A stretch of 56,365 bases of DNA from Patescibacteria group bacterium (GTDB lineage: Bacteria > Patescibacteriota > Patescibacteriia > UBA9934 > GWF2-40-263): NCBI GenBank assembly GCA_038065075.1, contig JBBTRQ010000023.1, positions 1-56,365 on the forward strand, given 5' to 3'. Under the pieces are notes generated by a model. That model ran no database searches and was not told the origin of the DNA. It worked only from the letters and a program-made list of their open reading frames with translations. How positions within the stretch are numbered: the stretch's first letter is position 1; each line of letters begins with the position of its first letter. A program made the translations under genes and the position numbers. This document shows, piece by piece, positions 5,895 to 53,153 of this stretch.

Positions 5895-5922
5895 CCCGCC
5901 ATAGCTTCACAGCGACGGCGGG
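5895..5922 (+). terminator. CCGCCATAGC..GCGACGGCGG hairpin element copy followed by a T-run (likely terminator of ORF 4639-5859)
   Basis: CCCGCCATAGCTTCACAGCGACGGCGGG followed by TTTTCATTTT. Confidence 0.55.
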
Positions 5923-10396: not shown

Positions 10397-10419
10397 GTCC
10401 TAGAGGGCCTATAGGACCT

Positions 10420-16111: not shown

Positions 16112-17257
16112 TCAGGCTAATCGCATATTCGGATCAGCCTTAAGCGTGAGCGGATCCACGAATTCTCCTCGAGCCGCTTTCATAAGTCCGGCCGCGCCGA
16201 TCATCGCGGCGTTATCGCCGGTGAGAGAAAGATCGGGTGCGTGAAAGGTCACCAACGGGTCGAGCTCGAAGAGTTTTTGTTTCAGCGTTTCGCGCAGAGC
16301 TCGGCTCGCTGACACGCCTCCAGACAGGATCACCGACTTGGGACTCGTCGCCTGAACGGCCTTGAGGGTCTTGTGTACCAACACGTCGACGACGGCCTGG
16401 AGGAAACTGGCAGAGATATCCGCGACGGTTACCGCACCACTGTGATCTGCGGCCTCCCTCCCACCCCCCCTAGCCCCCCCTCGGGCAGGGGGGGAACCTC
16501 GTCCTGAATCAAGATAGACTCGCACGGCGGTCTTCAACCCAGCGAAGCTGAAATCGAAATCGTCCGAGTCGATCATGGGGCGAGGAAACGCGACAAAGGC
16601 GGAATCTCCGTCACGAGCGGCCTTCTCAATCTTGGGTCCACCCGGATACTCCATCCCCAAGAGCTTCGCGACTTTGTCGAATGCCTCCCCTGCGGCGTCG
16701 TCACGTGTCATGCCCAGCAACTCGTACTTCCCATGGTCGCGCATGAGGATGAGCTCGGTGTGCCCGCCGGAGACGAGGAGGCACAGGGCGGGAAACCGAG
16801 GATTCAAACGCCCTTCAGGGCGGTCGAATGCAGACGCCCCTCCCGCCGTCGCCAAGGCTATGGCGGGCAGGAAAGGGGCTTTGAAATCAGACAGCCACAC
16901 AGAATAAATGTGTCCCTCAAGATGGTTCACGGCTACAAGAGGTTTCTTCCACGCCCACGCGAGGGTCTTGCCGAGCTCGACTCCCACACGCAGAGCCGGC
17001 ACGAGTCCCGGTCCTGCTGTCACCGCAACCGCGTCGATCCCGGTTCCATCGTGCGCGATGCCTACTTCCTGCAGGAGCGGAATGATCCACGCCGCGTGCT
17101 CGCGCGCCGCCACTTCCGGCACCACGCCGCCGTACTGGGCATGAATCTTTGCTTGGGAGGACGTGATATTTTTTTCGATCACAAACACACCATCGGTCAG
17201 CGACACGACCGCGATGGAGGTTTCGTCACAACTGGTTTCGATGGCGAGGATACGCAT
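16112..17257 (-). CDS. tsaD: tRNA N6-adenosine threonylcarbamoyltransferase TsaD, with two in-frame repeat-derived insertions
   Basis: MRILAIETSCDETS, VSGGHTELI and the Kae1/TsaD fold are present. The start is set at ATG 17257; the track ORF extends to 17308. Confidence 0.9.
   Translation of the reverse strand: MRILAIETSCDETSIAVVSLTDGVFVIEKNITSSQAKIHAQYGGVVPEVAAREHAAWIIPLLQEVGIAHDGTGIDAVAVTAGPGLVPALRVGVELGKTLAWAWKKPLVAVNHLEGHIYSVWLSDFKAPFLPAIALATAGGASAFDRPEGRLNPRFPALCLLVSGGHTELILMRDHGKYELLGMTRDDAAGEAFDKVAKLLGMEYPGGPKIEKAARDGDSAFVAFPRPMIDSDDFDFSFAGLKTAVRVYLDSGRGSPPARGGARGGGREAADHSGAVTVADISASFLQAVVDVLVHKTLKAVQATSPKSVILSGGVSASRALRETLKQKLFELDPLVTFHAPDLSLTGDNAAMIGAAGLMKAARGEFVDPLTLKADPNMRLA
16836..16879 (-). 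repeat. hairpin element copy inside tsaD coding sequence
   Basis: Sense strand GCCCCTTTCCTGCCCGCCATAGCCTTGGCGACGGCGGGAGGGGC is translated as ..FLPAIALATAGGA... Confidence 0.8.
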
Positions 17258-17304
17258 AGGAATGAAAAGGCCCCGCAGGTGCAGGGCGCGTGTTGGAGCG
17301 ACGG

Positions 17305-18180
17305 TCACGCCGCTTTCGTCGTCGCTCTCCTTGTGAGAGAGAGCGCGTTCTGAAGAAGCCGGAGGCTCACCTGGAAGTTTTCCATCAGGAGGTTTCCCAC
17401 CTTCCGGAGGTAACTTCCGCGACGTTCCCGTCCGACGACGACTCGTCCGAGGAGCTCGTCGTACCTGTAGTCCAGGTCGAGAAGCTCTTTGTAGTCGCCA
17501 TGAAGCGAGGAAAACTCCGGCTCCGCGAGGAACCGCGAGATGACCTCAGCCTTGCCGTCGTCCGGCAGGACTCCGTGGAGCCACCACAGGAGCCAACGGC
17601 CGATGACGATGTGTCGTCGCAATGGACGGAAGTTTGCCTCCCAATTCCTTTGGAGCCAGGCCTCCAGGTTGTGGTCGCAGCCGAAGTGCCGGCTCATGAA
17701 GATTCCGCCGCGGGCTTGAGTCGAACGCAGATTCGACACGAGCTTCTGCAACATTTCTTCCTGGACTGAGCCGTAAGGAACTTGGAAACAATCTGCCAAC
17801 GGCTTCCCGATGGCGAAGCGCCCCAATTTCCTCGGAAACGTCTGAAGGTACGAGGGGCCGTACATGTGCCGTCCGCAGGCTGCGTCGTTGGCGTTCCAGA
17901 GCCAACTGCTCAGGGGAACGGCGCGCTCGGTGGCCAATCGACCGAACTGACGCTCAAGTGCTTGCGCGCGAGCGAACTTGCTCGGCCGTGCGACAAGGAT
18001 GAGATCCAGGTCGCTGCCCCATTGCAGATCACCGCGAACCAGCGAGCCGACGAATGCGACCCCCTTGAATACCCGCTCTTGGTCGGCCAACTCGAGGATG
18101 TCATGTGCTACTTCCTCGAAGTCCGTCTCCGACGGCACATTGCCCTGGCGAGCGAGTCGCCAGGGGAAGATCATTCCCAT
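17305..18180 (-). CDS. Pol-beta-superfamily nucleotidyltransferase domain protein (GC-rich cassette)
   Basis: GVAFVGSLVRGDLQWGSDLDLILV matches the GS-x9-12-DxD NTase motif. The start is set at ATG 18180, which is preceded by GGGAG. Confidence 0.65.
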   Translation of the reverse strand: MGMIFPWRLARQGNVPSETDFEEVAHDILELADQERVFKGVAFVGSLVRGDLQWGSDLDLILVARPSKFARAQALERQFGRLATERAVPLSSWLWNANDAACGRHMYGPSYLQTFPRKLGRFAIGKPLADCFQVPYGSVQEEMLQKLVSNLRSTQARGGIFMSRHFGCDHNLEAWLQRNWEANFRPLRRHIVIGRWLLWWLHGVLPDDGKAEVISRFLAEPEFSSLHGDYKELLDLDYRYDELLGRVVVGRERRGSYLRKVGNLLMENFQVSLRLLQNALSLTRRATTKAA

Positions 18181-18324
18181 GGCGTTCTCCCAGGACAAAA
18201 GGTTGGATCACGTAGACACCTCCACGGCTGCACGGTACCCTACATGGGCACCAGGAGCATCAGCTCGACACCGCGACTGTACGCAGGTCCTCTCAAAGCG
18301 TCAAGCAAATAATCTGCATTTCCT

Positions 18325-19341
18325 ATGATTAAACTGAGCTTTCAAACCTTTGCCCAATTGTGCGAAATGCTCAAGGGGCTCTACGGCGTTGTGTCCGTAG
18401 CAGACTTGCGATCCATTGGTGGCGGATTCACGACAGAAAACTTTTTGTTCTCCGATGGAGAAGCAACGTATTTTCTCAAACGCTACAACACGACAGACAC
18501 GGCCCGAATTCACGACATCGCTACGGCTTATGAACGATTTTCCCAAGGAGGAATCCCCGTCATCCAGCCCATCAAAAATACACAAGGAGAATCCTGCTTC
18601 TTCCTGGATGAGACCTGGTGGGGCGTATTCCCATTCGTGGATGGAATCACAAAAACTTCCACTGAACTTACCTCGCATGATGTGGCAGAACTGGGAAATA
18701 TGCTTGGAAAAATCCATCAGGTCGGACAGTCATGCCTCCTTCAGGACATTCAGCCGATCCCCCTGTGGAACAAGGACGTCTTCACTTCAGAAAAACGACT
18801 TCTTGAATATACCTACCATCACGAAATACAAAAACGCGAGATCGAGACACTCGCGATAGAAAACCTGACAACGAAGGAACGGTTCCTCTCCTCCCACGCG
18901 GACTTTATCGCCAGCCTACATCCATTGAACAACTGCCTCATCCATGGCGACTTCATCCATAACAACGTGTTCTTCTCCCCGGACGGCCAGATCAAGGCAA
19001 CGTTTGATCTGGACAAGGCCTGCGTCGCTCCGCGTTCCTACGAAGTTGCCCGCTCGATGTTCATCATCTGTTTTGACCATGGCTGGGACGAAACAAACTT
19101 CACCCTGGCTGACACTTTCTTGCGTCACTACCTGGCCATCCACCCAATGAGCTTTGAAGAATTCCAATCCGGGTTGTACACCTACACCGCCAACTTCTCC
19201 CACATGACCTGGGTGGAAAAAAAGGTGATTCTCTACAAGGACCCCAGACGCGATAAACATCTGCGTTCATCCAACATGCGAATCAAGCACTTGGCGGAAG
19301 AGTTCCCCACGCTCGCTGAACGGCTCTTTCCCCACACGTGA
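18325..19341 (+). CDS. APH/choline-kinase-fold phosphotransferase (338 aa)
   Basis: LIHGDFIHNNVFF (HGDxxxxN) and FDLDKA (DxD) motifs. Confidence 0.75.
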   Translation: MIKLSFQTFAQLCEMLKGLYGVVSVADLRSIGGGFTTENFLFSDGEATYFLKRYNTTDTARIHDIATAYERFSQGGIPVIQPIKNTQGESCFFLDETWWGVFPFVDGITKTSTELTSHDVAELGNMLGKIHQVGQSCLLQDIQPIPLWNKDVFTSEKRLLEYTYHHEIQKREIETLAIENLTTKERFLSSHADFIASLHPLNNCLIHGDFIHNNVFFSPDGQIKATFDLDKACVAPRSYEVARSMFIICFDHGWDETNFTLADTFLRHYLAIHPMSFEEFQSGLYTYTANFSHMTWVEKKVILYKDPRRDKHLRSSNMRIKHLAEEFPTLAERLFPHT

Positions 19342-20552
19342 CCTGTATGCTCAAATCCCTCACCAAGTTTCAAAAACGCCTGCTCGCTTCTTTTTTTCTT
19401 TTTGGCCTGGCGGCTCCCATGGTGGTCGTGTATGCCAACACCTTTCTGTGGCGGCAGTCGGCGGACGTGGTGGTGCTCGCCATTTTCAACATCGGTAACT
19501 ACGCAGGCATCTCGCTGGGATTTCTCTTCAACGCGTACCTCCTGCGATTTTTCGAAAGTGGGAAGCTCTACGCACTGGGGTGTCTGCTCCAAGGCGTTGT
19601 CCCGATCCTCATGGTCGCCATGGGCGCGCAGGCAGACACCTACGCGTTGGGACTGGGTTTCATTTTGGGAATCGCCCAAGGATTTTTCTGGGGCAACCGC
19701 AACGCGCTCACGAGCAAGTTCACGCAAGGTCCACAGCGGTATCAGTTCATCAGTGTGGAGACAGCGATAGGAATTCTCGCGGGCGTGATCTCCCCTCTCT
19801 TGATCGGCTGGTTCATCGCTTTTGGAGAAACGCTCCCAACCTACACCGTCGACCAGGCCTACCAGATCACGTCCGTCATCGGATTTGTCTTGCTCCTTAT
19901 CTCAGGATTCCTTGCATGGCCGTTTGCGATGGAGCCGTTCACCCCCAAACACTTCTTTCTCACAAAAGCCAGCTCGCTTTGGAACAAGCAACGACTCGTC
20001 GAGGGCGTAAACGGCATCGCCAGCGGAATCGAAAGTGTACTCCCGCTGGTGATCATCCTGTTGTTCCTCGGCCAAGAGGAGGCTGTCGGGTCGGTCAAAG
20101 CCATGACCGCCATTCTCTCCGCCGTCGCGATCTACGCGATCGGCAAGCGCGTGCGTCACAACCATCACGCGCTCCTGTTCAGTCTTTGGATTCTCCTGAA
20201 CCTGACCGGCGGAATCATCTTCGCGATTTTTTACTCCCCGGGTGCCGCGCTGACCCTCTTTATTTTGGGCGGACTCGTTGGCTCCTTGCGTTGGTCCTCA
20301 TTCGCCGCGGTCATGTACGAGATCGTCGACAAAGAAACGGGGCGCGAAGGCTCGCATCGTTTCCTTTATCTGCTTGACCGTGAGTTCTTCCTCAACGCAG
20401 GTCGAGTCCTGGGTCTGGGACTGCTTGTCCTGGTGTACTGGTACAGTCCTGAGGCCCTCATACGATTCGGCCCCATTGGCATCGCCCTCGTTCAAATTCC
20501 GACACTCCTCCTCTTGCACAATCTCACCAAAAACATTAGCCATTCCGCCTAA
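19338..20552 (+). CDS. MFS-like 12-TM transporter (404 aa)
   Basis: About 12 hydrophobic segments. The start overlaps the APH stop by 4 nt. Confidence 0.55.
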   Translation: MTCMLKSLTKFQKRLLASFFLFGLAAPMVVVYANTFLWRQSADVVVLAIFNIGNYAGISLGFLFNAYLLRFFESGKLYALGCLLQGVVPILMVAMGAQADTYALGLGFILGIAQGFFWGNRNALTSKFTQGPQRYQFISVETAIGILAGVISPLLIGWFIAFGETLPTYTVDQAYQITSVIGFVLLLISGFLAWPFAMEPFTPKHFFLTKASSLWNKQRLVEGVNGIASGIESVLPLVIILLFLGQEEAVGSVKAMTAILSAVAIYAIGKRVRHNHHALLFSLWILLNLTGGIIFAIFYSPGAALTLFILGGLVGSLRWSSFAAVMYEIVDKETGREGSHRFLYLLDREFFLNAGRVLGLGLLVLVYWYSPEALIRFGPIGIALVQIPTLLLLHNLTKNISHSA

Positions 20553-43476: not shown

Positions 43477-45798
43477 ATGCACCTGATGAAATTGGAGCTC
43501 CAGGGTTTCAAGACGTTCGCCAAAAAAACCGCGCTTTCTTTTTTGCCCCCAACCGATGTGCGTTCCCCTATTACCGCCGTGGTGGGCCCAAATGGTTCTG
43601 GAAAATCCAACCTCGCCGACGCCATCCGCTGGGTCCTGGGCGAGCAGAGTTTGAAGCTCCTGCGTGGCAAGGAATCGCAGGATGTTATTTTTTCGGGCTC
43701 GCAAGGAAAGGGTCGTGCAGGGTTTGCCGAGGTGAGCTTGAGCCTTAATAATGAGGACGGCTCCATGCCCATTGACTATGGCCATGTGACCATCACGCGT
43801 CGCCTCTTCCGCGATGGCACCAGTGAATATCTCTTGAACGAATCTCACGTCCGACTCCAAGACATCCAACTTCTGCTCGCCCAGGCCAACGTCGGCCAGC
43901 GCTCGTACTCCGTGATCGGCCAGGGGATGATCGATCACATCTTGGTCTCGACACCCGAGGAGCGCAAAGCGTTCTTTGATGATGCGACAGGTGTGAAGCC
44001 GTTTCAGTTGAAGCGCCATGAGGCCGTACTCAAACTCAAACGCACGCACGAAAACTTAGCGGATGTCGAGATGCTCTTGCGCGAGATTGAACCGCGCCTG
44101 CGTTCCCTCAAGCGCCAGGCTCAACGGCTCGAGCAACGCGATGAGATCGAACAAAAACTTCACGCGCTGGAAGCCGACTACTACGGCGCGCAGTGGTGGA
44201 CGCTCATCGACCAACTCGACGCCGTGAAGCGACAGTTCGAGGAGGCCGATGATAAAATCAAACTCGAGCGCAAAGAGTTGACGGACTTGGAGCGCGCAGC
44301 AGAGAAACTTGAAAAGTCAGAGACCGGTGACGACGGCCTCGCGGCGCTCCAGACTTCGTATCGCGCGGTGCAAAAAAAACAACATGAGAACCGCCAAGCG
44401 CAATTTGAGACCGAGAAAGAAATCGAGCTCACCAAGGTGCGCGCGCAGAGTAACTGGGCGCCTCTGCCGCTGCTGAAGATCGTCGAGGAGGTGGGGGCGA
44501 TCACGGAGGGGATCAAGGGACTCAAAGGCTTCAAAGGCGTCGAGGAAATTCACAAGGCTGTCGACGAACTTCTTAAGAAATCCTCGAGCCTGCGCAAACA
44601 CCTCGAGCGGCCAAATCCCGAGGACATCAAGCCCGATCCCAAGCTCCTCGAGAAACTCAAAGACCTCAAAGCGCAAGAGAGCAAGATCCAAAAAGAGCTC
44701 ACGGGCCTGGAGGCGCAGATCGACGCGTACGCCACCCAGGAAAGATCGGAGCGAACCGAGCTCATCGAACAACAAAAGACTCTACGCGAGAAGCAACGAC
44801 AGATTCATCTCTTCGAAAACCGACGCAATGAATTACAAATCGACGTGGCACGCTATGAGGAGCGCCAACAGGCTCTCACTCGCGAGATGAACGAGTTCAT
44901 GAAAGACCGCGCGGTAGAGGTTCGGTCGCATCGTCTGGACACTTCACGCTCCACGACTCACGATTCAGACTCCTACGCCGAAATCCAGCGCCTGCGCTAC
45001 AAACTCGAGCTTATCGGCGGCATCGATCCGGAGATCATGAAAGAATACGAGGAGACGCGCACGCGCCACGCGTTCCTCGACGGCCAAGTGAGCGATCTCC
45101 ACAAGGCTCTGCGCGACACGGAAAAAGTCATTGTGGAACTGGACGAGCAGATCGAGAAACAGTCCAAGGCGGTGTTTGGGAAAATCGATCGTGAGTTTGA
45201 ACGGTATTTCAAATTGCTGTTTGGGGGAGGATCGTGTCGGTTGGTGAAGCTCACACGCGAGGATGCAGATGAGGTAGCCCCAGGCTTCCCTGCCCGCCAT
45301 AGCTTTAGCGACGGCGGGAGCCTGGGCGAAGCCGAAGGTGTGACACCGGATCGCGCCTTTGCCGATACGGGCGAAGGAGAGCGAGACCGGGAAGACATCA
45401 TCGCCAAGAAACTGCAGAAGCACCAAGACCCCGTGATCGGCATCGACATCCAAGCGACGCCACCGGGGAAAAAACTCAAGGCGCTCAATCTGCTCTCCGG
45501 CGGCGAGCGCGCGCTCACCTCAATCGCGCTCATCAGCGCCATCATGGCCGTGAACCCAAGCCCGTTCGTGTTGCTCGACGAGGTCGATGCGGCACTGGAT
45601 GAGTCCAACACCATCCGCTTTGCCTCCATCCTGCAAGAGCTCTCAGAAAAATCTCAGTTCATCATCATCACGCATAACCGCGCGACCATGGAACAGGCTG
45701 ACGTCCTCTACGGCGTCACGATGGGCGATGAGGGGATCTCCAATCTGCTGTCGATTCATCTGGAAGAAGTCTCAAACGGCGCAACGGCAAGACGATAA
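43477..45798 (+). CDS. smc: SMC chromosome-condensation ATPase, unusually short (773 aa), carrying an in-frame hairpin element
   Basis: N-head VVGPNGSGKSNLADAIRWVLGEQS..LRG..DVIFSGS; C-head PPGKKLKALNLLSGGERALTSIALI..VLLDEVDAALDESN. No hinge-type segment was recognised by eye. Confidence 0.85.
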   Translation: MHLMKLELQGFKTFAKKTALSFLPPTDVRSPITAVVGPNGSGKSNLADAIRWVLGEQSLKLLRGKESQDVIFSGSQGKGRAGFAEVSLSLNNEDGSMPIDYGHVTITRRLFRDGTSEYLLNESHVRLQDIQLLLAQANVGQRSYSVIGQGMIDHILVSTPEERKAFFDDATGVKPFQLKRHEAVLKLKRTHENLADVEMLLREIEPRLRSLKRQAQRLEQRDEIEQKLHALEADYYGAQWWTLIDQLDAVKRQFEEADDKIKLERKELTDLERAAEKLEKSETGDDGLAALQTSYRAVQKKQHENRQAQFETEKEIELTKVRAQSNWAPLPLLKIVEEVGAITEGIKGLKGFKGVEEIHKAVDELLKKSSSLRKHLERPNPEDIKPDPKLLEKLKDLKAQESKIQKELTGLEAQIDAYATQERSERTELIEQQKTLREKQRQIHLFENRRNELQIDVARYEERQQALTREMNEFMKDRAVEVRSHRLDTSRSTTHDSDSYAEIQRLRYKLELIGGIDPEIMKEYEETRTRHAFLDGQVSDLHKALRDTEKVIVELDEQIEKQSKAVFGKIDREFERYFKLLFGGGSCRLVKLTREDADEVAPGFPARHSFSDGGSLGEAEGVTPDRAFADTGEGERDREDIIAKKLQKHQDPVIGIDIQATPPGKKLKALNLLSGGERALTSIALISAIMAVNPSPFVLLDEVDAALDESNTIRFASILQELSEKSQFIIITHNRATMEQADVLYGVTMGDEGISNLLSIHLEEVSNGATARR
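45279..45326 (+). repeat. hairpin element copy inside smc
   Basis: CCCAGGCTTCCCTGCCCGCCATAGCTTTAGCGACGGCGGGAGCCTGGG is translated as APGFPARHSFSDGGSLG. Confidence 0.85.
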
Positions 45799-45821: not shown

Positions 45822-46034
45822 TCATGAGGAGAGGAGGGCGATAGCAACGAGCATGAGGACGTCCAGAAAGATCGCCAGAGGAAGGAGGGCGAGAGCCTCC
45901 TTGACCTCCTTGCGCCACCACTGGGCGGCCATGCCCTCCCGCTCAATGGGGTCGTTGAAGCTCCGAAAGAGCGGGTGGCGTTCCTGGGAGAGGAGCGCCG
46001 CGAATAGCCCGAGAAGCGCGACAAAGGTCAACAT
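45822..46034 (-). CDS. small membrane protein (70 aa), GC-rich unit
   Basis: Two hydrophobic segments. A GGGGTGAG-type SD precedes the ATG. Confidence 0.4.
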   Translation of the reverse strand: MLTFVALLGLFAALLSQERHPLFRSFNDPIEREGMAAQWWRKEVKEALALLPLAIFLDVLMLVAIALLSS

Positions 46035-46139
46035 GACTCACCCCTTTCGCTTGGCCACTTGTCTATAATAGAGCTAACCACGACGCACAACTTTGTACAA
46101 CAAAACACACCCCAGAGATGGGATGTGTTTTGTTTATGT

Positions 46140-46197
46140 CCTCAACTGAGTCTTCGACCCTGAGTCTATAGAAGGGTCGACTTCTCGGTTGAAGAGG
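46140..46197. repeat. attC-like imperfect palindrome E1
   Basis: CCTCAACTGAGTCTTCGACCCTGAGTCTATAGAAGGGTCGACTTCTCGGTTGAAGAGG. Confidence 0.8.
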
Positions 46198-46198
46198 C

Positions 46199-46450
46199 AT
46201 GGGTGGCATGCTATTCTTTTCCTATATGAAGAAACACGTCGTGAATGATTATCCTGTCATTGTGCACACGGACGATTCTGTCGGCTACTGGGTTGAGTGT
46301 CCTGTCTTTGAAGGTTGTTACAGCCAGGGTAAGACGATCGATGAAGCGCTCAAGAACATCCAGGAAGCGATCGAACTCTGCGCAGAAGAGTTACCAAAAA
46401 AGGCGGTGAGACAACGACGCGAGATAGGCGTCCATTTTGTTCGCGTCTAA
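46199..46450 (+). CDS. hicB: HicB-family antitoxin
   Basis: GYWVECPVFEGCYSQGKTIDEALKNIQEAIELCAEEL. The start is possibly MKKH at 46226. Confidence 0.8.
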   Translation: MGGMLFFSYMKKHVVNDYPVIVHTDDSVGYWVECPVFEGCYSQGKTIDEALKNIQEAIELCAEELPKKAVRQRREIGVHFVRV

Positions 46451-46454
46451 GTCT

Positions 46455-46682
46455 ATGACAGAGCTTGCAGGAATCTCCGGAAAGCGGATGATCCGTGTCC
46501 TCGAGAAACTCGGCTATCAGATTTTACGTCAGAAAGGTAGTCACGTCCGTCTGAAGCACCATCGAGATCCGACCAGACGACCTGTCACCGTTCCCCTTCA
46601 CAAGGAGCTCGGCGTTGGACTCGTCCATAAAATGATCCGAGACGCCGGTATCAGCCTAGAAAGTTTCATCGAACTGCTCTGA
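46455..46682 (+). CDS. hicA: HicA-family toxin
   Basis: RMIRVLEKLGYQILRQKGSHVRLKH. Confidence 0.8.
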   Translation: MTELAGISGKRMIRVLEKLGYQILRQKGSHVRLKHHRDPTRRPVTVPLHKELGVGLVHKMIRDAGISLESFIELL

Positions 46683-46700
46683 GGAGCAGTTCTTTATTTT

Positions 46701-46742
46701 CCTCAACTGAGTCTTCGAGGTAACTCGATTCCTCGGTTGAGG
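46701..46742. repeat. attC-like imperfect palindrome E2
   Basis: CCTCAACTGAGTCTTCGAGGTAACTCGATTCCTCGGTTGAGG. Confidence 0.8.
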
Positions 46743-47469
46743 ACCCCGGCAGTCGACACGTGATTGGCGCTTTCGCACCACGTCGGCCGGGGCAGGTCGT
46801 CTAGAGGCCCCGGTCGACTTCACAAGTCGTGCCGGGATCCTCGTTCCCCTGACTTTTTGGCGCGCGCAGGGGGGGCGCAGATCAATGATCCCGCAGGAAG
46901 GACATCGTCCCTCCTTTCCTTGCTCAGTGCCCGGGTGATAACCTAGTGGGCAAAGGGATGAGGTCGCTCATCCTCCGAGTCGATGCGTCGACCAGCGTGT
47001 CGTTAACCTCCACGAGCCAGGAGTATTCAGATTAACCCGACTTCATCGGGAGGCCTAATACTGAAGGCCTGTTTTCCCATGCTTTGGCGCGACCCTTTAG
47101 GACGTTGCCGTCCACCGACGCCTCAAGGTTTCCCTCGAGCGGTTGCTCCAACAGGTTTGCTACGTACTCAGGTGCTGTCCCCTTTCCTCACGCTCTGTTG
47201 TGCAAACCGGCATAGTGCGCCGGGTTGTCTGTATTATCCGCGTCTGGGCGACAACTTGGTCTTACGACCCCCAGACGTTTCCTAGTGTTGCTCGGGCATG
47301 AACCCTCCTCCATACCTGGTGGTTCAGAACGTCACGACGACCAGGATTTCGTCGAGACACCAGACATCTCGCTCATGGTCGGCGAGCCACGTGTGGCCGC
47401 GGACCGAGAGGAGACGTCCGAAACGAATCACCCCGTTCGAGAAGACAACCATGCTCAGCATGATCTCCT

Positions 47470-47524
47470 CCTCAACTGAGTCTTCGACCCTGAGTCTATC
47501 GAAGGGTCGACTTCTCGGTTGAGG
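47470..47524. repeat. attC-like imperfect palindrome E3 (near-identical to E1)
   Basis: CCTCAACTGAGTCTTCGACCCTGAGTCTATCGAAGGGTCGACTTCTCGGTTGAGG. Confidence 0.8.
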
Positions 47525-47565
47525 AGCCCGGCGCGAGGACGGACTCCTCGGGTCGGGCGCGTGGG

Positions 47566-48207
47566 TCAGTTGGTGCCGGCGTCCCATGCGTCGGCGTCAA
47601 ACCCGTTGTTGGTGAGGTCGTCGAGGTAGTCCGCGTCGTCGGTGACATTCGGGGCGAGGACGACCGCGACGGCCGCCTCGATCTCCTCGCCATCGACCAT
47701 CGCGAGGAGTTCCTCGCGGAGGCGGGCTTCGACGATCGCGGGGTTGTCCTCCGGGTCGGGCTCCGGGTACGGCAGGTCGACCATGTCGCGGGAGTAGCGG
47801 GTGAAGGCGTGGCCGATGGCCGAGGGGTCGAGCCGCGGGACGGGGATCACGATGAAGGCTGTGCCCTCACCGTCCGAGACCCGGACGAGCTCGTAGTGCT
47901 CCCCACCGTCGTCGGTGAGGTAGGCAACGCTCACCGCCAGCCGGAGATCCTCGTTGAAGAGGAGGACGGCGACGATCTTGTCGACGATCTCGAGGCACCC
48001 GGCCAGGTGGGCACGGACGCCCAGACCGATCAAGGTGGCGGCGAGCTGGGCGGAGTTGGAACGGTTCACGATGATTTCTTTCTGCGACCTCTGGCCGCGT
48101 GGGGGGTGCGTGTCGGGAACTGTTTCATCCCAAGAGTCTTGAGGCAGAACCTCCAGACTTCTGAGATGAAAAAGCTGATTACCAGGTACCTCGTCGGAGA
48201 TACCCAA
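47566..48207 (-). CDS. hypothetical acidic protein (213 aa), GC-rich
   Basis: Longest ORF of the GC-rich block. The ORF appears to begin with TTG, so the start is uncertain. No family recognised. Confidence 0.5.
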   Translation of the reverse strand: MGISDEVPGNQLFHLRSLEVLPQDSWDETVPDTHPPRGQRSQKEIIVNRSNSAQLAATLIGLGVRAHLAGCLEIVDKIVAVLLFNEDLRLAVSVAYLTDDGGEHYELVRVSDGEGTAFIVIPVPRLDPSAIGHAFTRYSRDMVDLPYPEPDPEDNPAIVEARLREELLAMVDGEEIEAAVAVVLAPNVTDDADYLDDLTNNGFDADAWDAGTN

Positions 48208-48416
48208 TAATCAGCTAAGGAAGGCCTTGCGGCTTCCTCGGATGAACATCAGGTCTCTCTCCCCAATGAGTTCGATTGTAATGGTGCAATACTATCACTT
48301 TTTGACCGTTTTGTCAAGAGGAGTGTGTGCTTTTTGAGCTGAATTTAGTCAAAATTTGTGACCATAAGCAAAAGCCGGGTGGAGGCAGTTCTGTGTCTAT
48401 GTTATTCTTTGTTTGT

Positions 48417-48701
48417 ATGAAGTCTCAACAACTCTCTTATACGGCCGTGATCCAGCAAGATGAAGACGGAAACCACCTTGTTTCTTTTCCCTCTCTTCCC
48501 GGGTGCGTCACTTTTGGACGGACTTATGAGGAAGCTTTGAAAATGGGACAAGAGGTGCTCGAATTATGGATCGAAGAACTTGTTGAATCTGGGGAACCAC
48601 TCCCAGAAGAAGGTCGATCAAGTCTGACGATCCTGAACACACCGCGCCCGACTCACAAACGAACTCGTGCCTATGCATCCGCTCGCACCCAAAGAGCTTG
48701 A
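48417..48701 (+). CDS. hicB: HicB-family antitoxin
   Basis: YTAVIQQDEDGNHLVSFPSLPGCVTFGRTYEEALKMGQEVLELWIEEL. The start is set at MKSQQ. Confidence 0.75.
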   Translation: MKSQQLSYTAVIQQDEDGNHLVSFPSLPGCVTFGRTYEEALKMGQEVLELWIEELVESGEPLPEEGRSSLTILNTPRPTHKRTRAYASARTQRA

Positions 48702-48885
48702 ACGCATTCTCAAAGCTCATGGGTTTGTTCTCTCGAGGGAACGTGGTAGTCACCGAATCTATCGGCATCCAGAAACCGGCTCGATCGTGCCGATCCCCTT
48801 TCACGGAAAAAGCAAACCATTGCCAATCGGAACGTTCATGGCAATCGTCAAACAATCTAAGCTCCCGAAGGACGTCTTTAAATGA
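48667..48885 (+). CDS. hicA: HicA-family toxin
   Basis: LERILKAHGFVLSRERGSHRIYRHPE. Confidence 0.8.
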   Translation: MPMHPLAPKELERILKAHGFVLSRERGSHRIYRHPETGSIVPIPFHGKSKPLPIGTFMAIVKQSKLPKDVFK

Positions 48886-48910
48886 GACGTCCTTTGTTTT
48901 GGAACAAGAT

Positions 48911-48953
48911 AAAACCGCTCTGTGAGGAGCGGCTATGCGTGCGTCGATCGCCA
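48911..48953 (-). terminator. shared 3' module/terminator (copy 1)
   Basis: Minus-strand sense TGGCGATCGACGCACGCATAGCCGCTCCTCACAGAGCGGTTTT. It matches 50234-50275 apart from a 1-nt indel. Confidence 0.65.
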
Positions 48954-48978
48954 CACCCGGCGGGGCGTGTTGGGGGTG

Positions 48979-49446
48979 CTACTTGTCGTGCTCGCGATGG
49001 GTGAAGACGATCGTCTTCCCGGTGAGATCCCCGCAGATACGGGTGAACTCACCCACCCCAGGGAGCAACCCGTCGCCGTCAACGGCTCGGGACAGGACCT
49101 GATCCTTGTCCTGGCCGCGAACCCGCCCGCTCGCCAAGGCGACCAGGTTGTTGTTGGCGTCCACGAGCATGAAGCTCGTGTCCGCCCAGACGAACTGGAG
49201 CTCGGGAAGCGTGCTCCTCGTCGCTCCCTCGGAAGAGCGGTAGGCGAACCGGTACTCGATCCGGTACTTGCCCGAGAGGCCGCTCGCCCTCAACCCGGTC
49301 TGCACGCACACGGCGAGCGGCCGGCCTGGCATCCACACCGTGTCGCCGTGGTAGATCTCCACGGTAGCGGTGGCGGTGAGCTGCTGCGCGAGGGCGAAGG
49401 TGGGGGTGGAGAGGAGAAGGGCGAGGAGGACGGGGATGAGGCGCAT
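48979..49446 (-). CDS. secreted protein (155 aa), GC-rich
   Basis: Signal peptide MRLIPVLLALLLSTPTFALA. AGGAG lies 5 nt before the ATG. Confidence 0.6.
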   Translation of the reverse strand: MRLIPVLLALLLSTPTFALAQQLTATATVEIYHGDTVWMPGRPLAVCVQTGLRASGLSGKYRIEYRFAYRSSEGATRSTLPELQFVWADTSFMLVDANNNLVALASGRVRGQDKDQVLSRAVDGDGLLPGVGEFTRICGDLTGKTIVFTHREHDK

Positions 49447-49487
49447 GACGTCTCCTGGGGGTTGGGTACAACTTCACCGTGAAGTTT

Positions 49488-49535
49488 CCCTCAACTGACA
49501 CGTCGAGATTTCGCTCGACGGTTCGGTTGAAGGGG
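49488..49535. repeat. attC-like imperfect palindrome E4
   Basis: CCCTCAACTGACACGTCGAGATTTCGCTCGACGGTTCGGTTGAAGGGG. Confidence 0.75.
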
Positions 49536-49546
49536 CGCCACAGTCT

Positions 49547-49816
49547 GTGCTATGCTCAAATTGTATGGATCAGGAGCAAGCCATCAACGATATCCTCGAG
49601 ATCGTCTCGGCGATAAAAGACGAAATGGTTACGCATGATGAACTACATCAGGCATTGTTTGAGACGAGGTCAGAAATCATGAGCCATGTTGACAGCTTCA
49701 TCCATCTGCACAATAAGCTCGACACGGAGCTCACGGCTTTGCGGGGAAAGTACGACCGACTCGAGGGTTTCGTAAAACAGCTTGCCGCCCACGCCCATAT
49801 CACTCTGGAATATTAG
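49547..49816 (+). CDS. small coiled-coil protein (89 aa)
   Basis: Clean ORF with backbone-like composition between E4 and E5, followed by the terminator GCAACCTCGCAAGAGGTTGTTTTGTTT. Confidence 0.5.
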   Translation: MLCSNCMDQEQAINDILEIVSAIKDEMVTHDELHQALFETRSEIMSHVDSFIHLHNKLDTELTALRGKYDRLEGFVKQLAAHAHITLEY

Positions 49817-49848
49817 CAGTAGCAACCTCGCAAGAGGTTGTTTTGTTT

Positions 49849-49892
49849 CCCTCAACCGACGCGCCAAGCGACACTTAGCGAGTCAGTTGAGG
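49849..49892. repeat. attC-like imperfect palindrome E5
   Basis: CCCTCAACCGACGCGCCAAGCGACACTTAGCGAGTCAGTTGAGG. Confidence 0.75.
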
Positions 49893-50233
49893 ACCCCGGC
49901 CGACGTGGCGCTTGAGCGCCACGAGCGTCCCCGTGAGTACGAAATCCTCGAGGACGACCTGCACGACTTTGGCCGTGAGAGCCGCCTTGAGCGCTCTGTT
50001 TCCCGGCTTACTCTGGCAATGCATTGGGTCTCCTTCCCAACCAACGCTGGCTGAAAAAAAATTGGATGTCGTCAAACACCTGCTCGACGTACGTGGAGGG
50101 CAGATCGCAAATAACGATCTGCCCTATGCGCGCGTGGTCAAGCAAGAGACGACAAGCTACCATTTTTGCACGTTCTGTCAAGACGGGTGCTTGAAATATC
50201 CCATTATTTCAGCCGATTTTTTGGCCAATAGAA

Positions 50234-50275
50234 AAAACCGCTCGTGAGGAGCGGCTATGCGTGCGTCGATCGCCA
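50234..50275 (-). terminator. shared 3' module/terminator (copy 2)
   Basis: AAAACCGCTCGTGAGGAGCGGCTATGCGTGCGTCGATCGCCA on the plus strand; on the minus strand it reads as a hairpin plus T-run. Confidence 0.65.
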
Positions 50276-50295
50276 GACGCGGTAGGCGTCGGCGA

Positions 50296-50859
50296 TCACT
50301 CCTTGCTCATCACGAGCCGGTCGAGCGCGCGGTGGAACGTGAGCTTGTTGGGCTGGTTGTTGACGATGACGGGACCGTCGAGGGCCATGAGGTCGGGGAT
50401 GTTGGCGTTGCCGGCGAGCTGTTCGATCTCCCGGAAGCGCTGGCCCGTGAGCCCCTGCTCCCCCATCCGTTGCCGGCGGCGGGCGCGGGCGAGCCGGACG
50501 TTGAAGTCGGCTTCGAGCTTCACGAGCTGGAAACCGTGCAGGTCGTTGTAGACCTCGACCTCGGCGAGGTTGCGCACCCCGCTGACGACGACCAGTCGCC
50601 GGGGCTCGCGCGTCCAGAGCTCGACGACGGCCTCCTGTACCTGCCGCGCGATCCAGCCGTAGCCTTCGTTCGCGGCCCGCTCTTCGAAGAGCGCAGAGAG
50701 TTGGTCGGTCGTCGGACTCCAGTTGCCGCTCTGCGCGGCGAGCTTGCGGATGAAGTCCGAGTGACCGAAGCGCTGTGCCCCGTGAACCTTCTGCAGGTAC
50801 TCAGCCGCTTCGTCCTTGCCGGCACACGGCCAGCCCACGAACCCGATGACACGTCTCAT
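50296..50859 (-). CDS. P-loop kinase-like protein (dNMP/dephospho-CoA-kinase-like), GC-rich
   Basis: VIGFVGWPCAGKDEAAEYL Walker A. GGAGGTG lies 5 nt before the ATG. Confidence 0.55.
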   Translation of the reverse strand: MRRVIGFVGWPCAGKDEAAEYLQKVHGAQRFGHSDFIRKLAAQSGNWSPTTDQLSALFEERAANEGYGWIARQVQEAVVELWTREPRRLVVVSGVRNLAEVEVYNDLHGFQLVKLEADFNVRLARARRRQRMGEQGLTGQRFREIEQLAGNANIPDLMALDGPVIVNNQPNKLTFHRALDRLVMSKE

Positions 50860-50931
50860 GAATTCACCTCCTCTCCAGAATCTCTGGAGCCACCAACCTA
50901 GCAGGGAAAAGACCGCTCGTCAATCCATTTC

Positions 50932-51036: not shown

Positions 51037-51465
51037 ATGATTACTATTCGACTCTCCCGCGTTGGAACCAAGCGCGCCCCGGTCTACCGCGTGGTCGTTC
51101 AGCCAAAGCACAACGACCCGTGGGCCATCGCCACCGAAATTCTCGGCCACTTCAACCCCCGCAAGGAACCACGCGAACTCGTCCTTAATGTCGAGCGCGT
51201 GAAATACTGGCTTAGTCAGGGCGCCGAGGCCAGCGACACCGTGTGGAATCTTCTCTTGGACGAAAAAATCGTTGAAGGCAAGAAGCGTAGCGTGAGCCAT
51301 ATCTCTGGCACGCGCACCAAGAAGCTGGCGGATAAGGCCACCGAGGCAAAGGCAAAGGCTGACGAAGCCGCCACCAAGACTAAGCAAGTCGCTGAAGCCG
51401 CAAAGGCCGCCGCAGAGGCACCAGCACCAGAAGCTCCAGCACCAGAAGAACAACCAGCATCCTAA
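51037..51465 (+). CDS. rpsP: 30S ribosomal protein S16 with Lys/Ala/Pro-rich C-terminal extension
   Basis: MITIRLSRVGTKRAPVYRVVV.. with tail KAKADEAATK..APAPEAPAPEE. Confidence 0.9.
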   Translation: MITIRLSRVGTKRAPVYRVVVQPKHNDPWAIATEILGHFNPRKEPRELVLNVERVKYWLSQGAEASDTVWNLLLDEKIVEGKKRSVSHISGTRTKKLADKATEAKAKADEAATKTKQVAEAAKAAAEAPAPEAPAPEEQPAS

Positions 51466-51494: not shown

Positions 51495-52607
51495 TTGGTT
51501 TATATGATCCAGTCACGCCACGAACAATTTGAAACACTCTTTCCCTCCGAGCCTGCGTTTCGATGGAAGCAAATCGAAGGTGCGTTTTTTTCGTCGGCAA
51601 AAAGTTGGGACGACGTGACGACCATCTCAAAGTCGATGCGCGAGAAGCTGGCAGTCATCCCATGGATGAGCGTTACCTCACAGACAGTTCAAGTCAGCGG
51701 TAACGGGGACACGCACAAGGCGCTTCTCAGAGTCGAGGGCGACAAGGAAATCGAAACCGTCCTCATGAAAAACCGTGCGGGTGCCTGGACGATCTGCGTC
51801 TCATCTCAAGTGGGCTGTGCCATGCGCTGTGGTTTTTGCGCGACCGGCAAGATGGGTCTCACACGCAGTCTCATCGCCGACGAGATCGTGGACCAGTATC
51901 GATTTTGGCAACGATATCTGGTAGACCCGGGCTTTCCTGCCAGCCATAGCTTTAGCGACGGCGGGAGCCCGGGCGCACCCAGGCTGAAGCCTGGGACTAC
52001 CGAGAGAATCAGCAACATCGTCTTCATGGGCATGGGCGAGCCGCTCGCCAACTACGAGGAAGTAAAGCTGACGCTCAACACCCTTTTGAAATTTACCGAC
52101 CTTGGCGAGACCCGCCTCATGGTCTCCACCGTGGGCGTGCTCCCACGACTCGAACAGCTCCTCACGGACCCAGAGTGGCCACACGTGCGTCTGGCCGTTT
52201 CGCTTCACTCCGCTATCGAAGAGACACGCAAAAAAATCGTACCAACCAGTTACGACGAATTTCTTCCTAAACTATCCGACTGGGCGAAGCGCTACCTTCA
52301 AAAATTCGGCAATCGCCGTCACCACCTCACCTTTGAATACGTCATGCTCAAGGGCGTGAACGACTCACCCGCGCATGCCAAGGCGCTGGCCGTCTTCGTG
52401 AACCGCATCGGACGGATCAAGGTCAATCTCATTCCCTACAACCTTACGGACTGCGAATATCAACGGTCAACGGACACGACGATCACCGCCTTTCTTGATA
52501 CCCTCGCGCGCAATCACGTCACGGCCACCATCCGCCACACGATGGGTGACGACATCAATGCCGCCTGCGGACAGCTCATCGTCAATCAAACGGCCACGAC
52601 CGAGTAA
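51495..52607 (+). CDS. rlmN: 23S rRNA/tRNA adenine-C2 methyltransferase RlmN (radical SAM), carrying an in-frame hairpin element
   Basis: CAMRCGFCATG, NIVFMGMGEPLANY and a C-terminal ..CGQL motif. Confidence 0.9.
   Translation: MVYMIQSRHEQFETLFPSEPAFRWKQIEGAFFSSAKSWDDVTTISKSMREKLAVIPWMSVTSQTVQVSGNGDTHKALLRVEGDKEIETVLMKNRAGAWTICVSSQVGCAMRCGFCATGKMGLTRSLIADEIVDQYRFWQRYLVDPGFPASHSFSDGGSPGAPRLKPGTTERISNIVFMGMGEPLANYEEVKLTLNTLLKFTDLGETRLMVSTVGVLPRLEQLLTDPEWPHVRLAVSLHSAIEETRKKIVPTSYDEFLPKLSDWAKRYLQKFGNRRHHLTFEYVMLKGVNDSPAHAKALAVFVNRIGRIKVNLIPYNLTDCEYQRSTDTTITAFLDTLARNHVTATIRHTMGDDINAACGQLIVNQTATTE
51926..51973 (+). repeat. hairpin element copy inside rlmN
   Basis: CCCGGGCTTTCCTGCCAGCCATAGCTTTAGCGACGGCGGGAGCCCGGG is translated as DPGFPASHSFSDGGSPG. 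It is followed by the short hairpin CCCAGGCTGAAGCCTGGG (51978-51995). Confidence 0.85.
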
Positions 52608-52666
52608 CCCATTGAGCTTGACAGCCGCGGCGGGGCTGTGCTAGTCTCTAAGCACAACTGAAGAAA

Positions 52667-52785
52667 ACGTATTCAGAGTGTAGCGAGGGAACTAGCCCGA
52701 TGACCTGCCCGCAACCTACTCGCAAGAGCAAGGTGCGACCTCTAGCCCCGCAAGGGGAAAGATGCAACGGCAAAGCTGAATACGT
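52667..52785 (+). promoter_or_regulatory. SAM-I (S-box)-like riboswitch aptamer
   Basis: P1 is ACGTATTCAG/CTGAATACGT. The core AGAGTGTAGCGAGGGAACTAGCCCGATGACCTGCCCGCAACC..GGTGCGACCTCTAGCC..CCCCGCAAGGGGAAAGATG matches the conserved S-box string GAGGGA-CUGGCCCGAUGA-CC-GGCAACC..GGUGC..GAAAGAUG. P3 covaries (CGCAACC/GGTGCG). Confidence 0.65.
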
Positions 52786-52913
52786 CGCCCACAAGGCGAT
52801 CGTTTTGTTTAGACGATCCCCCTGCAGGCGACGTATTCGCCAAACCGTCTGATTAAGCGCGTCTTTCCATCATGGGAAGGCGCGTTTGTTCTTTCACAAC
52901 CAGGGAGGACGGC

Positions 52914-53153
52914 ATGACCGACCACAACCCAGAGCCCGACGACTTCGTCTTCAACGACACGGCGCCGGCCGGACTCGCGCGATCGCCATACGGCTGCGCA
53001 GACGAGGACGCACTCATCCGCGAACTGGACTTCCGCCGCGCCCGTGAACGGTTAGAGCAGGGTCTGGATCCGCTCACCGGCAAGCCCTACAACCGCTCGG
53101 TGGATCCCTTCGCCACCACCTGGGATCTGGAGCCGATCGAGGAGTCATTGTGA
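52914..53153 (+). CDS. hypothetical acidic protein (79 aa), GC-rich
   Basis: GGGAGG lies 5 nt before ATG 52914. It is the first ORF after the riboswitch and its hairpins. Confidence 0.5.
   Translation: MTDHNPEPDDFVFNDTAPAGLARSPYGCADEDALIRELDFRRARERLEQGLDPLTGKPYNRSVDPFATTWDLEPIEESL

Follow-up and report, generated by a model that had tools for sequence, protein, structure and literature searches.

In the 56,365-nucleotide stretch analyzed here (the window hereafter; contig JBBTRQ010000023.1 of assembly GCA_038065075.1, from a Patescibacteria group bacterium), the interval between smc (SMC_N in Pfam, 43477–45798) and rpsP (Ribosomal_S16 in Pfam, 51037–51465) carries five co-oriented hairpin elements (ELs) that delimit gene-sized units. 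The ELs are real and confined to this island, and the evidence supports a locus that works like a cassette array with attC-like sites. We lean toward reading it as a chromosomal array of mobile cassettes, in which the ELs are attC-like folded-DNA recombination sites and the recombinase acts in trans; the array is apparently mobile. An earlier note, made from the sequence alone, had described an integron-like array that resembles CALIN, in which attC sites are clustered but integron-integrases are missing. The cassette array with attC-like sites stands, but membership in the integrons or CALIN is not established, because the integrase IntI and the extrahelical bases of attC sites were both tested for and neither was found.

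EL1 to EL5 (E1 to E5 below) all lie on the plus strand. E1 (46140..46194; CCTCAACTGAG...CTCGGTTGAAG) and E3 (47470..47524) are 55-nt hairpins with 97% identity over 58 nt. E2 (46701..46742) is a 42-nt hairpin continued by an extension starting with ACCCCGGC, E4 (49489..49532) measures 44 nt and has the 3′ end GTTGAAG, and E5 (49850..49892) measures 43 nt and continues into the extension ACCCCGGCCGACGTGG... at 49893–49925. The extension of E3 is a GC-rich second hairpin (AGCCCGGCGCGAGGACGGACTCCTCGGGTCGGGCGCG; 47525..47565, plus strand). Successive ELs are spaced by 561, 769, 2019 and 361 nt. Sites of the form CCTCAAC-N20-50-GTTGARG occur five times in the window against 0.03 expected, a count reached in none of 100 shuffles, and DNA folding of the five ELs gave z-scores of −3.9 to −6.0 (plus strand). 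A covariance model built from 22 family members (short copies) and run with filters off across the 56,365 bases returned the five ELs only, at E ≤ 2e-8, the next match having E = 0.09. The elements lie where the earlier note had placed them, apart from ends that were off by 1–3 nt. Folding of each copy bore out the described architecture of a 7-bp terminal stem, a T/G position, a 2–3 bp GAS/STC stem, an internal loop and an apical stem-loop, but not the extrahelical bases claimed with it, the internal loops being symmetric (2x2 or 3x3; E5 has 1x1 mismatches). What had been taken for a mismatched position is a conserved T at position 8 facing G (T.G); in E5, C/A replaces T/G, a change seen in two of 43 distinct ELs.

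The window is 100% identical to part of a 389-kb contig (CAYHTY010000001.1) of the metagenome-assembled genome (MAG) GCA_964359885.1 at NCBI, and Hainich groundwater samples contain the same sequence. It was compared with about 12 related smc–rpsP islands and their flanks (237 kb in all), the homologous loci bearing the names Candidatus Uhrbacteria or Patescibacteria; the contigs and loci compared are numbered L001–L181, L001 being the source contig, which reaches past the right end of the window. A strict-pattern scan (CCTCAACTGA-N15-45-TCGGTTGARG) over 185,579 genomes, one per species, gave 34 loci, mostly chance matches without the inner hairpin, and the structured matches belonged to Uhrbacteria/Patescibacteria MAGs. 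In four syntenic genomes, all eight matches lie between smc and rpsP (tblastx; four in PFWU01, two in JAHFIQ01 and one each in SCSL01 and CAYHRJ01), and ten metagenome loci as well as L178 likewise have their ELs in this interval. In relatives with recognizable synteny the covariance model matched inside the island only; single ELs in L025 and L038, which stand without recognizable surroundings, fall outside this statement. Copy number per island ranges from 0–1 (L180/L181, with a 12.9-bit remnant) to at least 7 (L034, L054). A pattern scan of metagenomes also returned matches that were set aside, about 100 of 120 loci as unrelated perfect palindromes or terminators and four on viral contigs as an unrelated conserved sequence.

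With smc on the plus strand, nearly every EL shows the same polarity, with T at +8, G at −8 and the extension toward rpsP. The 22 short copies align in 44 columns. Their outer helix of 11 positions (CCTCAAC-T-GAG / CTC-G-GTTGAGG) is nearly invariant in sequence, and the internal loop (3+3 nt) and the apical loop are free in sequence. The inner helix has 5 bp, reads mostly TCGAG/CTCGA, CTGAT/ATCAG or CCGAS/STCGG (inner box YYGA/TCRR) and shows compensatory changes at four of its five pairs, with 96% of cells paired and a score reached in none of 500 shuffles. This alignment and the covariation test agree with the earlier description of an apex that varies, pairing being kept, between conserved terminal boxes. 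The CCTCAAC/GTTGAGG boxes, with their AAC/GTT, recur in each of the five ELs of the window and in almost all 43 distinct copies, L178 being an exception with a paired change to AAT/ATT. Lengths range from 41 to 108 nt, with 22 of 33 distinct copies at 41–44 nt, and the long ELs (55–108 nt) have extra or nested hairpins in the top. The arms, which lie 20–86 bp apart, are identical across genera in which neighboring genes have diverged by ~25–30% in nucleotides, and selection on the arms is thereby implied.

Conservation also reaches past the hairpin. Three extensions are conserved on the rpsP side (ACCCCGGY, AGCCCGGCGCGAGGAC... and TCTCAAGY...), each opening a second hairpin whose stem covaries among the types; the E3-type extension follows many ELs of relatives at 86–98% identity. 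On the smc (5′) side, GGGAACTGTTTCATC is common to some ELs. These extensions and the 5′ flank indicate that the repeat unit is larger than the hairpin.

From smc toward rpsP, the window carries mem70 (minus strand), E1, the hicBA1 pair (plus), E2, a non-coding region A, E3, orf167 (minus), a non-coding region B, the hicBA2 pair (plus), sp155 (minus), E4, orf89 (plus), E5, about 400 nt, a kinase-like gene (minus) and then rpsP. Pfam and folding confirmed the contents that had been assigned to three of these units: a hicBA pair between E1 and E2, a structured non-coding unit between E2 and E3, and orf89 between E4 and E5. The comparison of related genomes gave the result that the earlier note had named as a check: the differences between them concern whole units, with homology breakpoints at EL ends, in a co-oriented array; the earlier view that the elements delimit gene-sized units is upheld. 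Contigs with other orf89 contexts were found by exact look-up of the orf89 protein in the same aquifer. L172 and L170 are 93–94% identical to the window across the orf89 unit, and in both orf89 directly follows the mem70 terminator. The left flank of their first EL is that of E1 in the window (96.7–98.7%), its right flank is that of E4 with orf89, and its interior is a third variant, so homology switches exactly at both hairpin ends. Downstream of orf89, the EL is succeeded by one of four different sequences: ACCCCGG... in the window, AGCCCGCCGCGAGGAC and a high-GC open reading frame (ORF) in L171/L172, TCCCCATGCG... in L170 and, in L169, after a TTGAAG variant, a TTGACA-17-TATACT promoter. 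In L169 orf89 lies between two E4-type ELs, and the right EL of L172 is a hybrid, E5-like at positions 1–8 and E4-like in the remainder. The hicBA1 pair with its EL is upstream of region A in the window and downstream of it in L107, where it follows an sp155-like gene and takes the place held by orf89 in the window; L138 lacks it, and there a single long EL connects the smc terminator with region A. In L020 and L180, orf89 is the first unit after smc.

A rival reading takes the ELs for selfish or neutral palindromic repeats, similar to repetitive extragenic palindromes (REP), bacterial interspersed mosaic elements (BIME) or miniature inverted-repeat transposable elements (MITE), that were locally multiplied, the units being shuffled by ordinary homologous recombination, gene conversion or replication slippage among the copies. 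A dispersed palindromic family, PE2, does exist in this genome, the 97% identity of E1 and E3 over 58 nt suffices for homologous recombination, the conserved flanks extend beyond the hairpin, and a related repeat in L179 (below) occupies nearly every intergenic space of 10.7 kb, including those beside tRNA genes. Yet the ELs occupy one interval in each genome examined and none lies elsewhere in the 56 kb, whereas PE2 is dispersed; as truly dispersed palindromes are detected in the same window, the confinement of ELs to one locus is not a method artefact. All copies are co-oriented, target-site duplications were absent around the five window copies and about 40 others, the GTAG motif of REPs is not present in the EL alignment, and tblastn found no REP-associated tyrosine transposase (RAYT) or other transposase nearby. 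Most EL pairs share arms of only 10–11 bp, too short for efficient RecA action, and still units were translocated; the identity of the arms across genera, set against their diverged neighbors, again points to selection. We consider a repeat family of this kind quite unlikely, in agreement with the earlier note, which had distinguished the ELs from REP or MITE families; their common orientation and single locus bear this out.

The two strands of the hairpin are not equivalent. The smc-sense strand is the more stable one in 36 of 43 distinct ELs (DNA parameters; sign test p = 9e-6; mean −1.29 kcal/mol), and it carries 1.09 G:T mispairs per EL versus 0.28 on the complement; the sole conserved asymmetry of the hairpin is the T.G at position 8. 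The complement encodes most of the cassette ORFs as well as the region A RNA, so the favored strand is the non-coding one. For attC sites, Nivina et al. 2016 (PMC5027507) report 1.24 G:T on the recombined bottom strand and 0.39 on the top strand, the bottom strand also being the better-folding one. A weak hint from the negative GC skew of the plus strand is that the smc-sense strand may lie on the leading-strand template; the cumulative skew does not indicate a terminus near the island. In the Vibrio superintegron, the bottom strand is reportedly the leading-strand template.

This asymmetry bears on the idea that the ELs act in RNA, within long transcripts of the island, as RNase III-type processing sites, mRNA stabilizers, insulators or hairpins sequestering Shine–Dalgarno sequences, with the rearrangements as a by-product of recombination among the repeats. 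The ELs do sit between cistrons, and in several relatives GTTGAGG stands 1–8 nt before an ATG of the opposite strand, so that the hairpin would hide a GAGG ribosome-binding site (RBS). The promoter of region B could drive one long transcript through the array, the T.G of DNA corresponds to a U.G wobble in RNA, and a genuine structured RNA, region A, lies in the same interval. Selection in cassette transcripts would, however, put the wobbles in the transcript sense, as in region A, and the ELs do not have them there: the wobble-bearing strand is smc-sense, while most ORFs and region A are opposite, where position 8 reads C.A. Region A shows a G.U bias in its own sense, so the strand test is able to discriminate. 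Furthermore, the −35 box of smc-sense cassettes lies inside the EL, which leaves the EL outside the 5′ end of their mRNA, and no T-run follows the hairpin on either strand. An 11-bp sequence kept invariant across genera exceeds what RNase III or stabilizer hairpins need, and the exact breakpoints at EL ends would go unexplained. A role as RNA punctuation is therefore, in our judgment, unlikely.

Region A (46743..47300, minus strand) is a structured non-coding RNA of ~550 nt, recognized by sequence conservation, covariation and folding, and its position next to the ELs could suggest another origin for them. E2 abuts region A, and its counterparts in relatives always do so as well. The ELs might be att-site duplicates left by serial integration beside the RNA gene, at a duplex site and through an integrase of the host or of the element; genomic islands are known to pile up at tRNA and tmRNA genes, and integrative mobile elements exploiting Xer (IMEX) at dif. 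Consistent with such scars, the 3′ end of region A always adjoins an EL and the extension of that EL, the repeats are direct, co-oriented and confined to a single locus, and the extensions look like the beginning of region A (ACCCCGG, AGCCCGG and the covarying TCTCAAG...CTTGAGA). Against them, the ELs flank region A on both sides, and the units are only 0.36–2 kb long and carry no integrase. The 11-bp arms, at 20–86 bp from each other, are too far apart for the core site of a tyrosine recombinase on duplex DNA, and the covarying inner stem together with the strand-biased G:T points to selection on the folded form. Att-site scars are thus very unlikely to account for the array.

The preferred reading, a cassette array with attC-like sites, was compared with integrons feature by feature. 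The ELs have the second paired box and the variable top of attC sites, and the spacer between the boxes (T.G, 3 bp, symmetric loop) is only partly unpaired. The boxes YYYYAAC/GTTRRRR, which the earlier note had counted as a deviation, fall within natural attC variation: the Spirochaetes attC model reads cccUAACa/uGUUAggg, with a 1x1 mismatch next, then 6 bp, a bulge of one base and another 4 bp (Ghaly et al. 2021). Its single-base bulges, at MATL nodes 17 and 22, have no counterpart in the ELs. A strong promoter-like site in region B faces the array, and in six of eight relatives it lies at the rpsP-side end, where an attI platform with its Pc promoter might stand; in the window, two ELs lie beyond it.

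Other observations weigh against this reading. tblastn with probes for IntI1, XerD, gamma-delta resolvase and the TnpA of IS608 (cut-off E ≤ 1 for IntI1/XerD) found no tyrosine or serine recombinase and no IS200-type transposase in the window, in 5 kb beyond it or in the about 12 islands with flanks (237 kb). The earlier note had reported no intI in the window, which this search confirms; nor did the 5 kb beyond or the homologous islands yield one. A weak XerD match at 20290–20415 is part of a membrane transporter, and the single integrase match (L055) lies beside an unrelated chance palindrome. In attC sites, extrahelical bases near the L box define strand choice; none were present in the five window copies or in the 33 family copies folded. 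Eleven base pairs of the EL are invariant in sequence, and attC sites conserve mainly structure and the AAC. Described attC lengths are about 57–141 nt, so most ELs (41–44 nt) are shorter than any described attC. In mobile integrons the sites measure 57–70 bp, and VCR2 measures 133 bp (PMC5027507). The conservation outside the hairpin, with its three 3′ extension types and GGGAACTGTTTCATC on the 5′ side, is likewise unexpected for attC.

Locus L179 (JGI Ga0212128_10003396, 10.7 kb) adds to these points. It contains a diverged repeat in about 15 copies, located between nearly all of its minus-strand ORFs and built as CCCGCC-T-GAG...CTC-G-GGTGGG with a loop and an inner stem, after which comes an ACCCCCCGATG hairpin; it is probably a sister family of the ELs. 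The repeat shares the TGAG/CTCG and T.G architecture of the ELs and lacks their AAC/GTT. It adjoins tRNA-Ala, tRNA-Glu, an orf89 homologue and a PIN gene, and a duplicated 5′ tRNA half is overlapped by one of the copies. Moreover, part of the smc–rpsP array is stable rather than mobile, as region A, region B and orf89 are kept in most islands. The inferred crossovers are inconsistent in position, some mapping to the right arm and one to the left, so gene conversion or homologous recombination between repeats could have contributed. No circular cassette or excision junction was seen.

On the reading that we prefer, the cassettes would be the hicBA pairs, orf89, orphan high-GC ORFs and one non-coding RNA, and the ELs would be DNA recombination sites used in the form of the folded single-stranded smc-sense strand. 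A recombinase encoded elsewhere in the genome may excise and reinsert the units at the ELs, in the manner of IntI at attC; the exchange would then be site-specific, take place on single-stranded DNA and be catalyzed by a tyrosine recombinase in trans. The cassettes appear adapted to the site, in that units on the smc strand would use the EL variant TTGAAG as a −35 box, and those on the opposite strand are probably transcribed from the conserved promoter of region B. A bolder proposal, which seems to us rather doubtful, is a previously undescribed cassette system of the Candidate Phyla Radiation (CPR), made up of 41–44 nt sequence-specific hairpins, a recombinase other than an adjacent IntI and a core formed by regions A and B, with region A perhaps involved in the recombination or in controlling it, for instance as guide or scaffold; such a system would be a counterpart of the integron in ultra-small genomes, convergent or deeply diverged.

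Among the units, hicB1 (46226–46450, plus strand; HicB_lk_antitox, 5e-11) and hicA1 (46455–46682, plus; HicA_toxin, 7.5e-18) end in an intrinsic terminator at 46671–46700, and the second pair comprises hicB2 (48417–48701) and hicA2 (48667–48885), also on the plus strand; hicBA2 orthologues in L036, L057 and L109 have an EL on either side. The gene orf89 (49565..49816, plus) encodes a small coiled-coil protein and has its own terminator at 49821–49849. Plus-strand units (hicBA, orf89) bring their own promoter and terminator. The end of E1, TTGAAG at 46189–46194, forms a −35 box which, with a 17-nt spacer and TATTCT at 46212–46217, makes a promoter-like site upstream of hicB1, and the same hexamer at the end of E4 (49527–49532) is combined with an 18-nt spacer and TATGCT (49551–49556) in front of orf89. 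All ELs that precede plus-strand units end in TTGAAG, namely E1 and E4 in the window and eight copies in relatives.

Two high-GC ORFs lie on the minus strand: orf167 (47566..48069; GC 0.68), in the slot beside region B, without a Pfam family or a homologue in the related islands and so specific to this genome, and the orphan sp155 (48979..49446), with a signal-peptide-like N-terminus. In the long arrays of L034, L054, L106 and L154, the units are mostly single high-GC orphan ORFs on the minus strand, and several minus-strand ORFs of relatives begin 1–8 nt past GTTGAGG (minus sense). Pfam searches with 20 cassette proteins recognized only HicA, HicB and AAA_18. Orphan ORFs together with toxin–antitoxin pairs are the typical cassette content of chromosomal integrons. 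The GC content of the island forms a mosaic, with 67–68% in the minus-strand ORFs (orf167, sp155, kinase), 47–52% in the hicBA and orf89 units and about 54% in the genome, which suggests units of different origins.

The flanks of the array are fixed. On the left stand mem70, a small hydrophobic ORF between smc and E1 (45822..46034, minus), and beside it a terminator-like hairpin (46099–46134); on the right, the AAA_18 kinase-like gene (50296..50859, minus; Pfam) precedes rpsP and is kept in most relatives. In the island and its flanks Pfam recognized SMC, S16, the two hicBA pairs and this kinase, the other island ORFs having no family. A repeat of ~53 nt, present at 48908–48960 and 50231–50282 (93–95% identical) with a partial third copy at 50906–50920, provides two unrelated genes of the minus strand, sp155 and the kinase, with their 3′ UTR and intrinsic terminator. 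An orf89 homologue with 65% identity occurs in Candidatus Magasanikbacteria (L175–L177) between rplA and a dCMP deaminase gene; no ELs were found near it in these loci, so the cassette gene has non-cassette relatives in a neighboring lineage. Two further functions for the ELs were ruled out. As operators of HicB they would not be expected to flank units other than toxin–antitoxin pairs, which they do, and the HicB proteins are short (74–94 aa); as intrinsic terminators they lack a T-run 3′ of the hairpin on either strand, and the terminator scan called none. The T-rich tracts that precede ELs belong to separate upstream terminator hairpins.

Region A occurs in nearly all related islands at 77–87% nucleotide identity, above that of smc. 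Its alignment shows covarying hairpins with GNRA loops in the minus sense and long-range helices; RNAalifold on the minus strand gave 48 pairs, 15 of them compensatory (5′ 226 nt), with many G.U, and folding is better on the minus strand than on the plus strand. A strong Shine–Dalgarno sequence and a mini-ORF of 3–5 codons mark the 5′ edge of region A, at about 47301. Comparison by eye with RNase P, tmRNA, SRP RNA and group I/II introns gave no convincing match, ARAGORN found no tmRNA, and Rfam, at gathering and permissive thresholds in the window and six relatives, returned no family for region A or the ELs. The islands of L178 and L034 may contain ELs and no region A; their 8–11 kb loci are incomplete.

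Region B (48098..48323, minus strand) is a conserved non-coding block. It contains a near-consensus sigma-70-like promoter directed toward smc (TTGACA-17-TAGTAT with an extended −10 (TG), 48317 to 48289), a perfect 20-bp hairpin followed by a T-run on the minus strand (48216 to 48173) and an ORF of 20 codons (MKQFPTRTPH...), the stop codon of which overlaps the orf167 start codon, GTG. Its GATGAAACAGTTCCC motif is found again immediately past several ELs of relatives. Region B forms the rpsP-side end of the EL array in six of eight relatives.

The PE2 palindromes (core CCGCCATAGC-N3-9-GCGACGGCGG) have in-frame copies of ~57–60 nt inside smc (45273–45333) and inside an rlmN-like gene (51920–51980), with related cores at 5896, 16843, 54360, 55729 and 55907. 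The inserts add ..PGFPARHSFSDGGSLG.. to SMC and ..PGFPASHSFSDGGSPG.. to RlmN, and these 15–20 residues are absent from the relatives L020, L030, L058 and L016; such in-frame insertion resembles that of the Rickettsia palindromic elements. In L034, PE2 also sits nested within the loops of the 84-nt ELs. Elsewhere in the neighborhood, a SAM riboswitch (52666–52768; 47.3 bits, over the gathering score) lies upstream of the small ORF 52872–53153 in the rpsP...trmD stretch. Past the 16S gene to the right of the window, L001 carries a YafQ-type toxin pair and an IS256-family (Transposase_mut) gene at 16620–19837, and on the equivalent side L178 has a reverse transcriptase gene (RVT_1; 9881–10902), so the rRNA-proximal region collects mobile elements.

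Integrons are the textbook system for gene capture and shuffling, and CPR genomes, at about 1 Mb, are thought to leave little room for accessory gene flux. Integrons are found mainly in Proteobacteria and have been reported absent from very small genomes (PMC4889954). No description of integrons or of such arrays in CPR/Patescibacteria was found in the searchable literature. If the preferred reading is true, small CPR genomes keep a dedicated site for swapping small genes, and hairpin sites with the strand bias of attC but without its hallmarks would widen the range of recombination sites known to act as folded DNA. This can be tested directly, since the sites are short and defined by sequence, natural positional variants coexist in one aquifer, and a candidate recombinase could be sought by phylogenetic profiling.

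Taken together, the closest likeness is to integrons and CALIN. Both have imperfect hairpins with 7-bp terminal boxes containing AAC/GTT, another box farther in and a top that varies; sites that share one orientation and follow each other at one-gene intervals along a single chromosomal array; mostly orphan ORFs and toxin–antitoxin pairs with their own promoters; and differences between genomes that amount to whole cassettes. The non-coding (bottom) strand of attC is more stable and richer in G:T, as in the ELs (PMC5027507), and CALIN, like the array described here, have no integrase beside them. Unlike attC, the ELs have no extrahelical bases, are typically 41–44 nt long, keep 11 bp invariant and have conserved flanking extensions; unlike integrons, the array is fixed between smc and rpsP across the clade and includes regions A and B, and no IntI is known from its lineage.

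Other known systems share some of these features. REP/BIME elements with RAYT, and MITEs, are also short intergenic imperfect palindromes in several copies, some of them nested, but the ELs are undispersed and co-oriented, lack GTAG, RAYT and target-site duplications, and bound translocated units. The RNase III hairpins of phage T7 type and attC hairpins in mRNA are likewise intercistronic, 40–60 nt long, with an internal loop and able to cover an RBS; the wobble bias of the ELs opposes most cassette transcripts, and their sequence is conserved beyond structural need. In pdif modules and IMEX, gene units, often toxin–antitoxin pairs, are moved by XerC/D at dif-like sites and the recombinase is not encoded by the unit, and in the attP of the CTX phage a folded single-stranded hairpin is the Xer substrate. 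The pdif sites are 28-bp duplexes of alternating orientation on plasmids, with XerC and XerD arms on either side of a 6–8 bp spacer, in contrast to the co-oriented chromosomal hairpins of 41–108 nt found here. The EL sequence does not resemble dif, and a dif or terminus site was ruled out, there being no GC-skew switch near the island.

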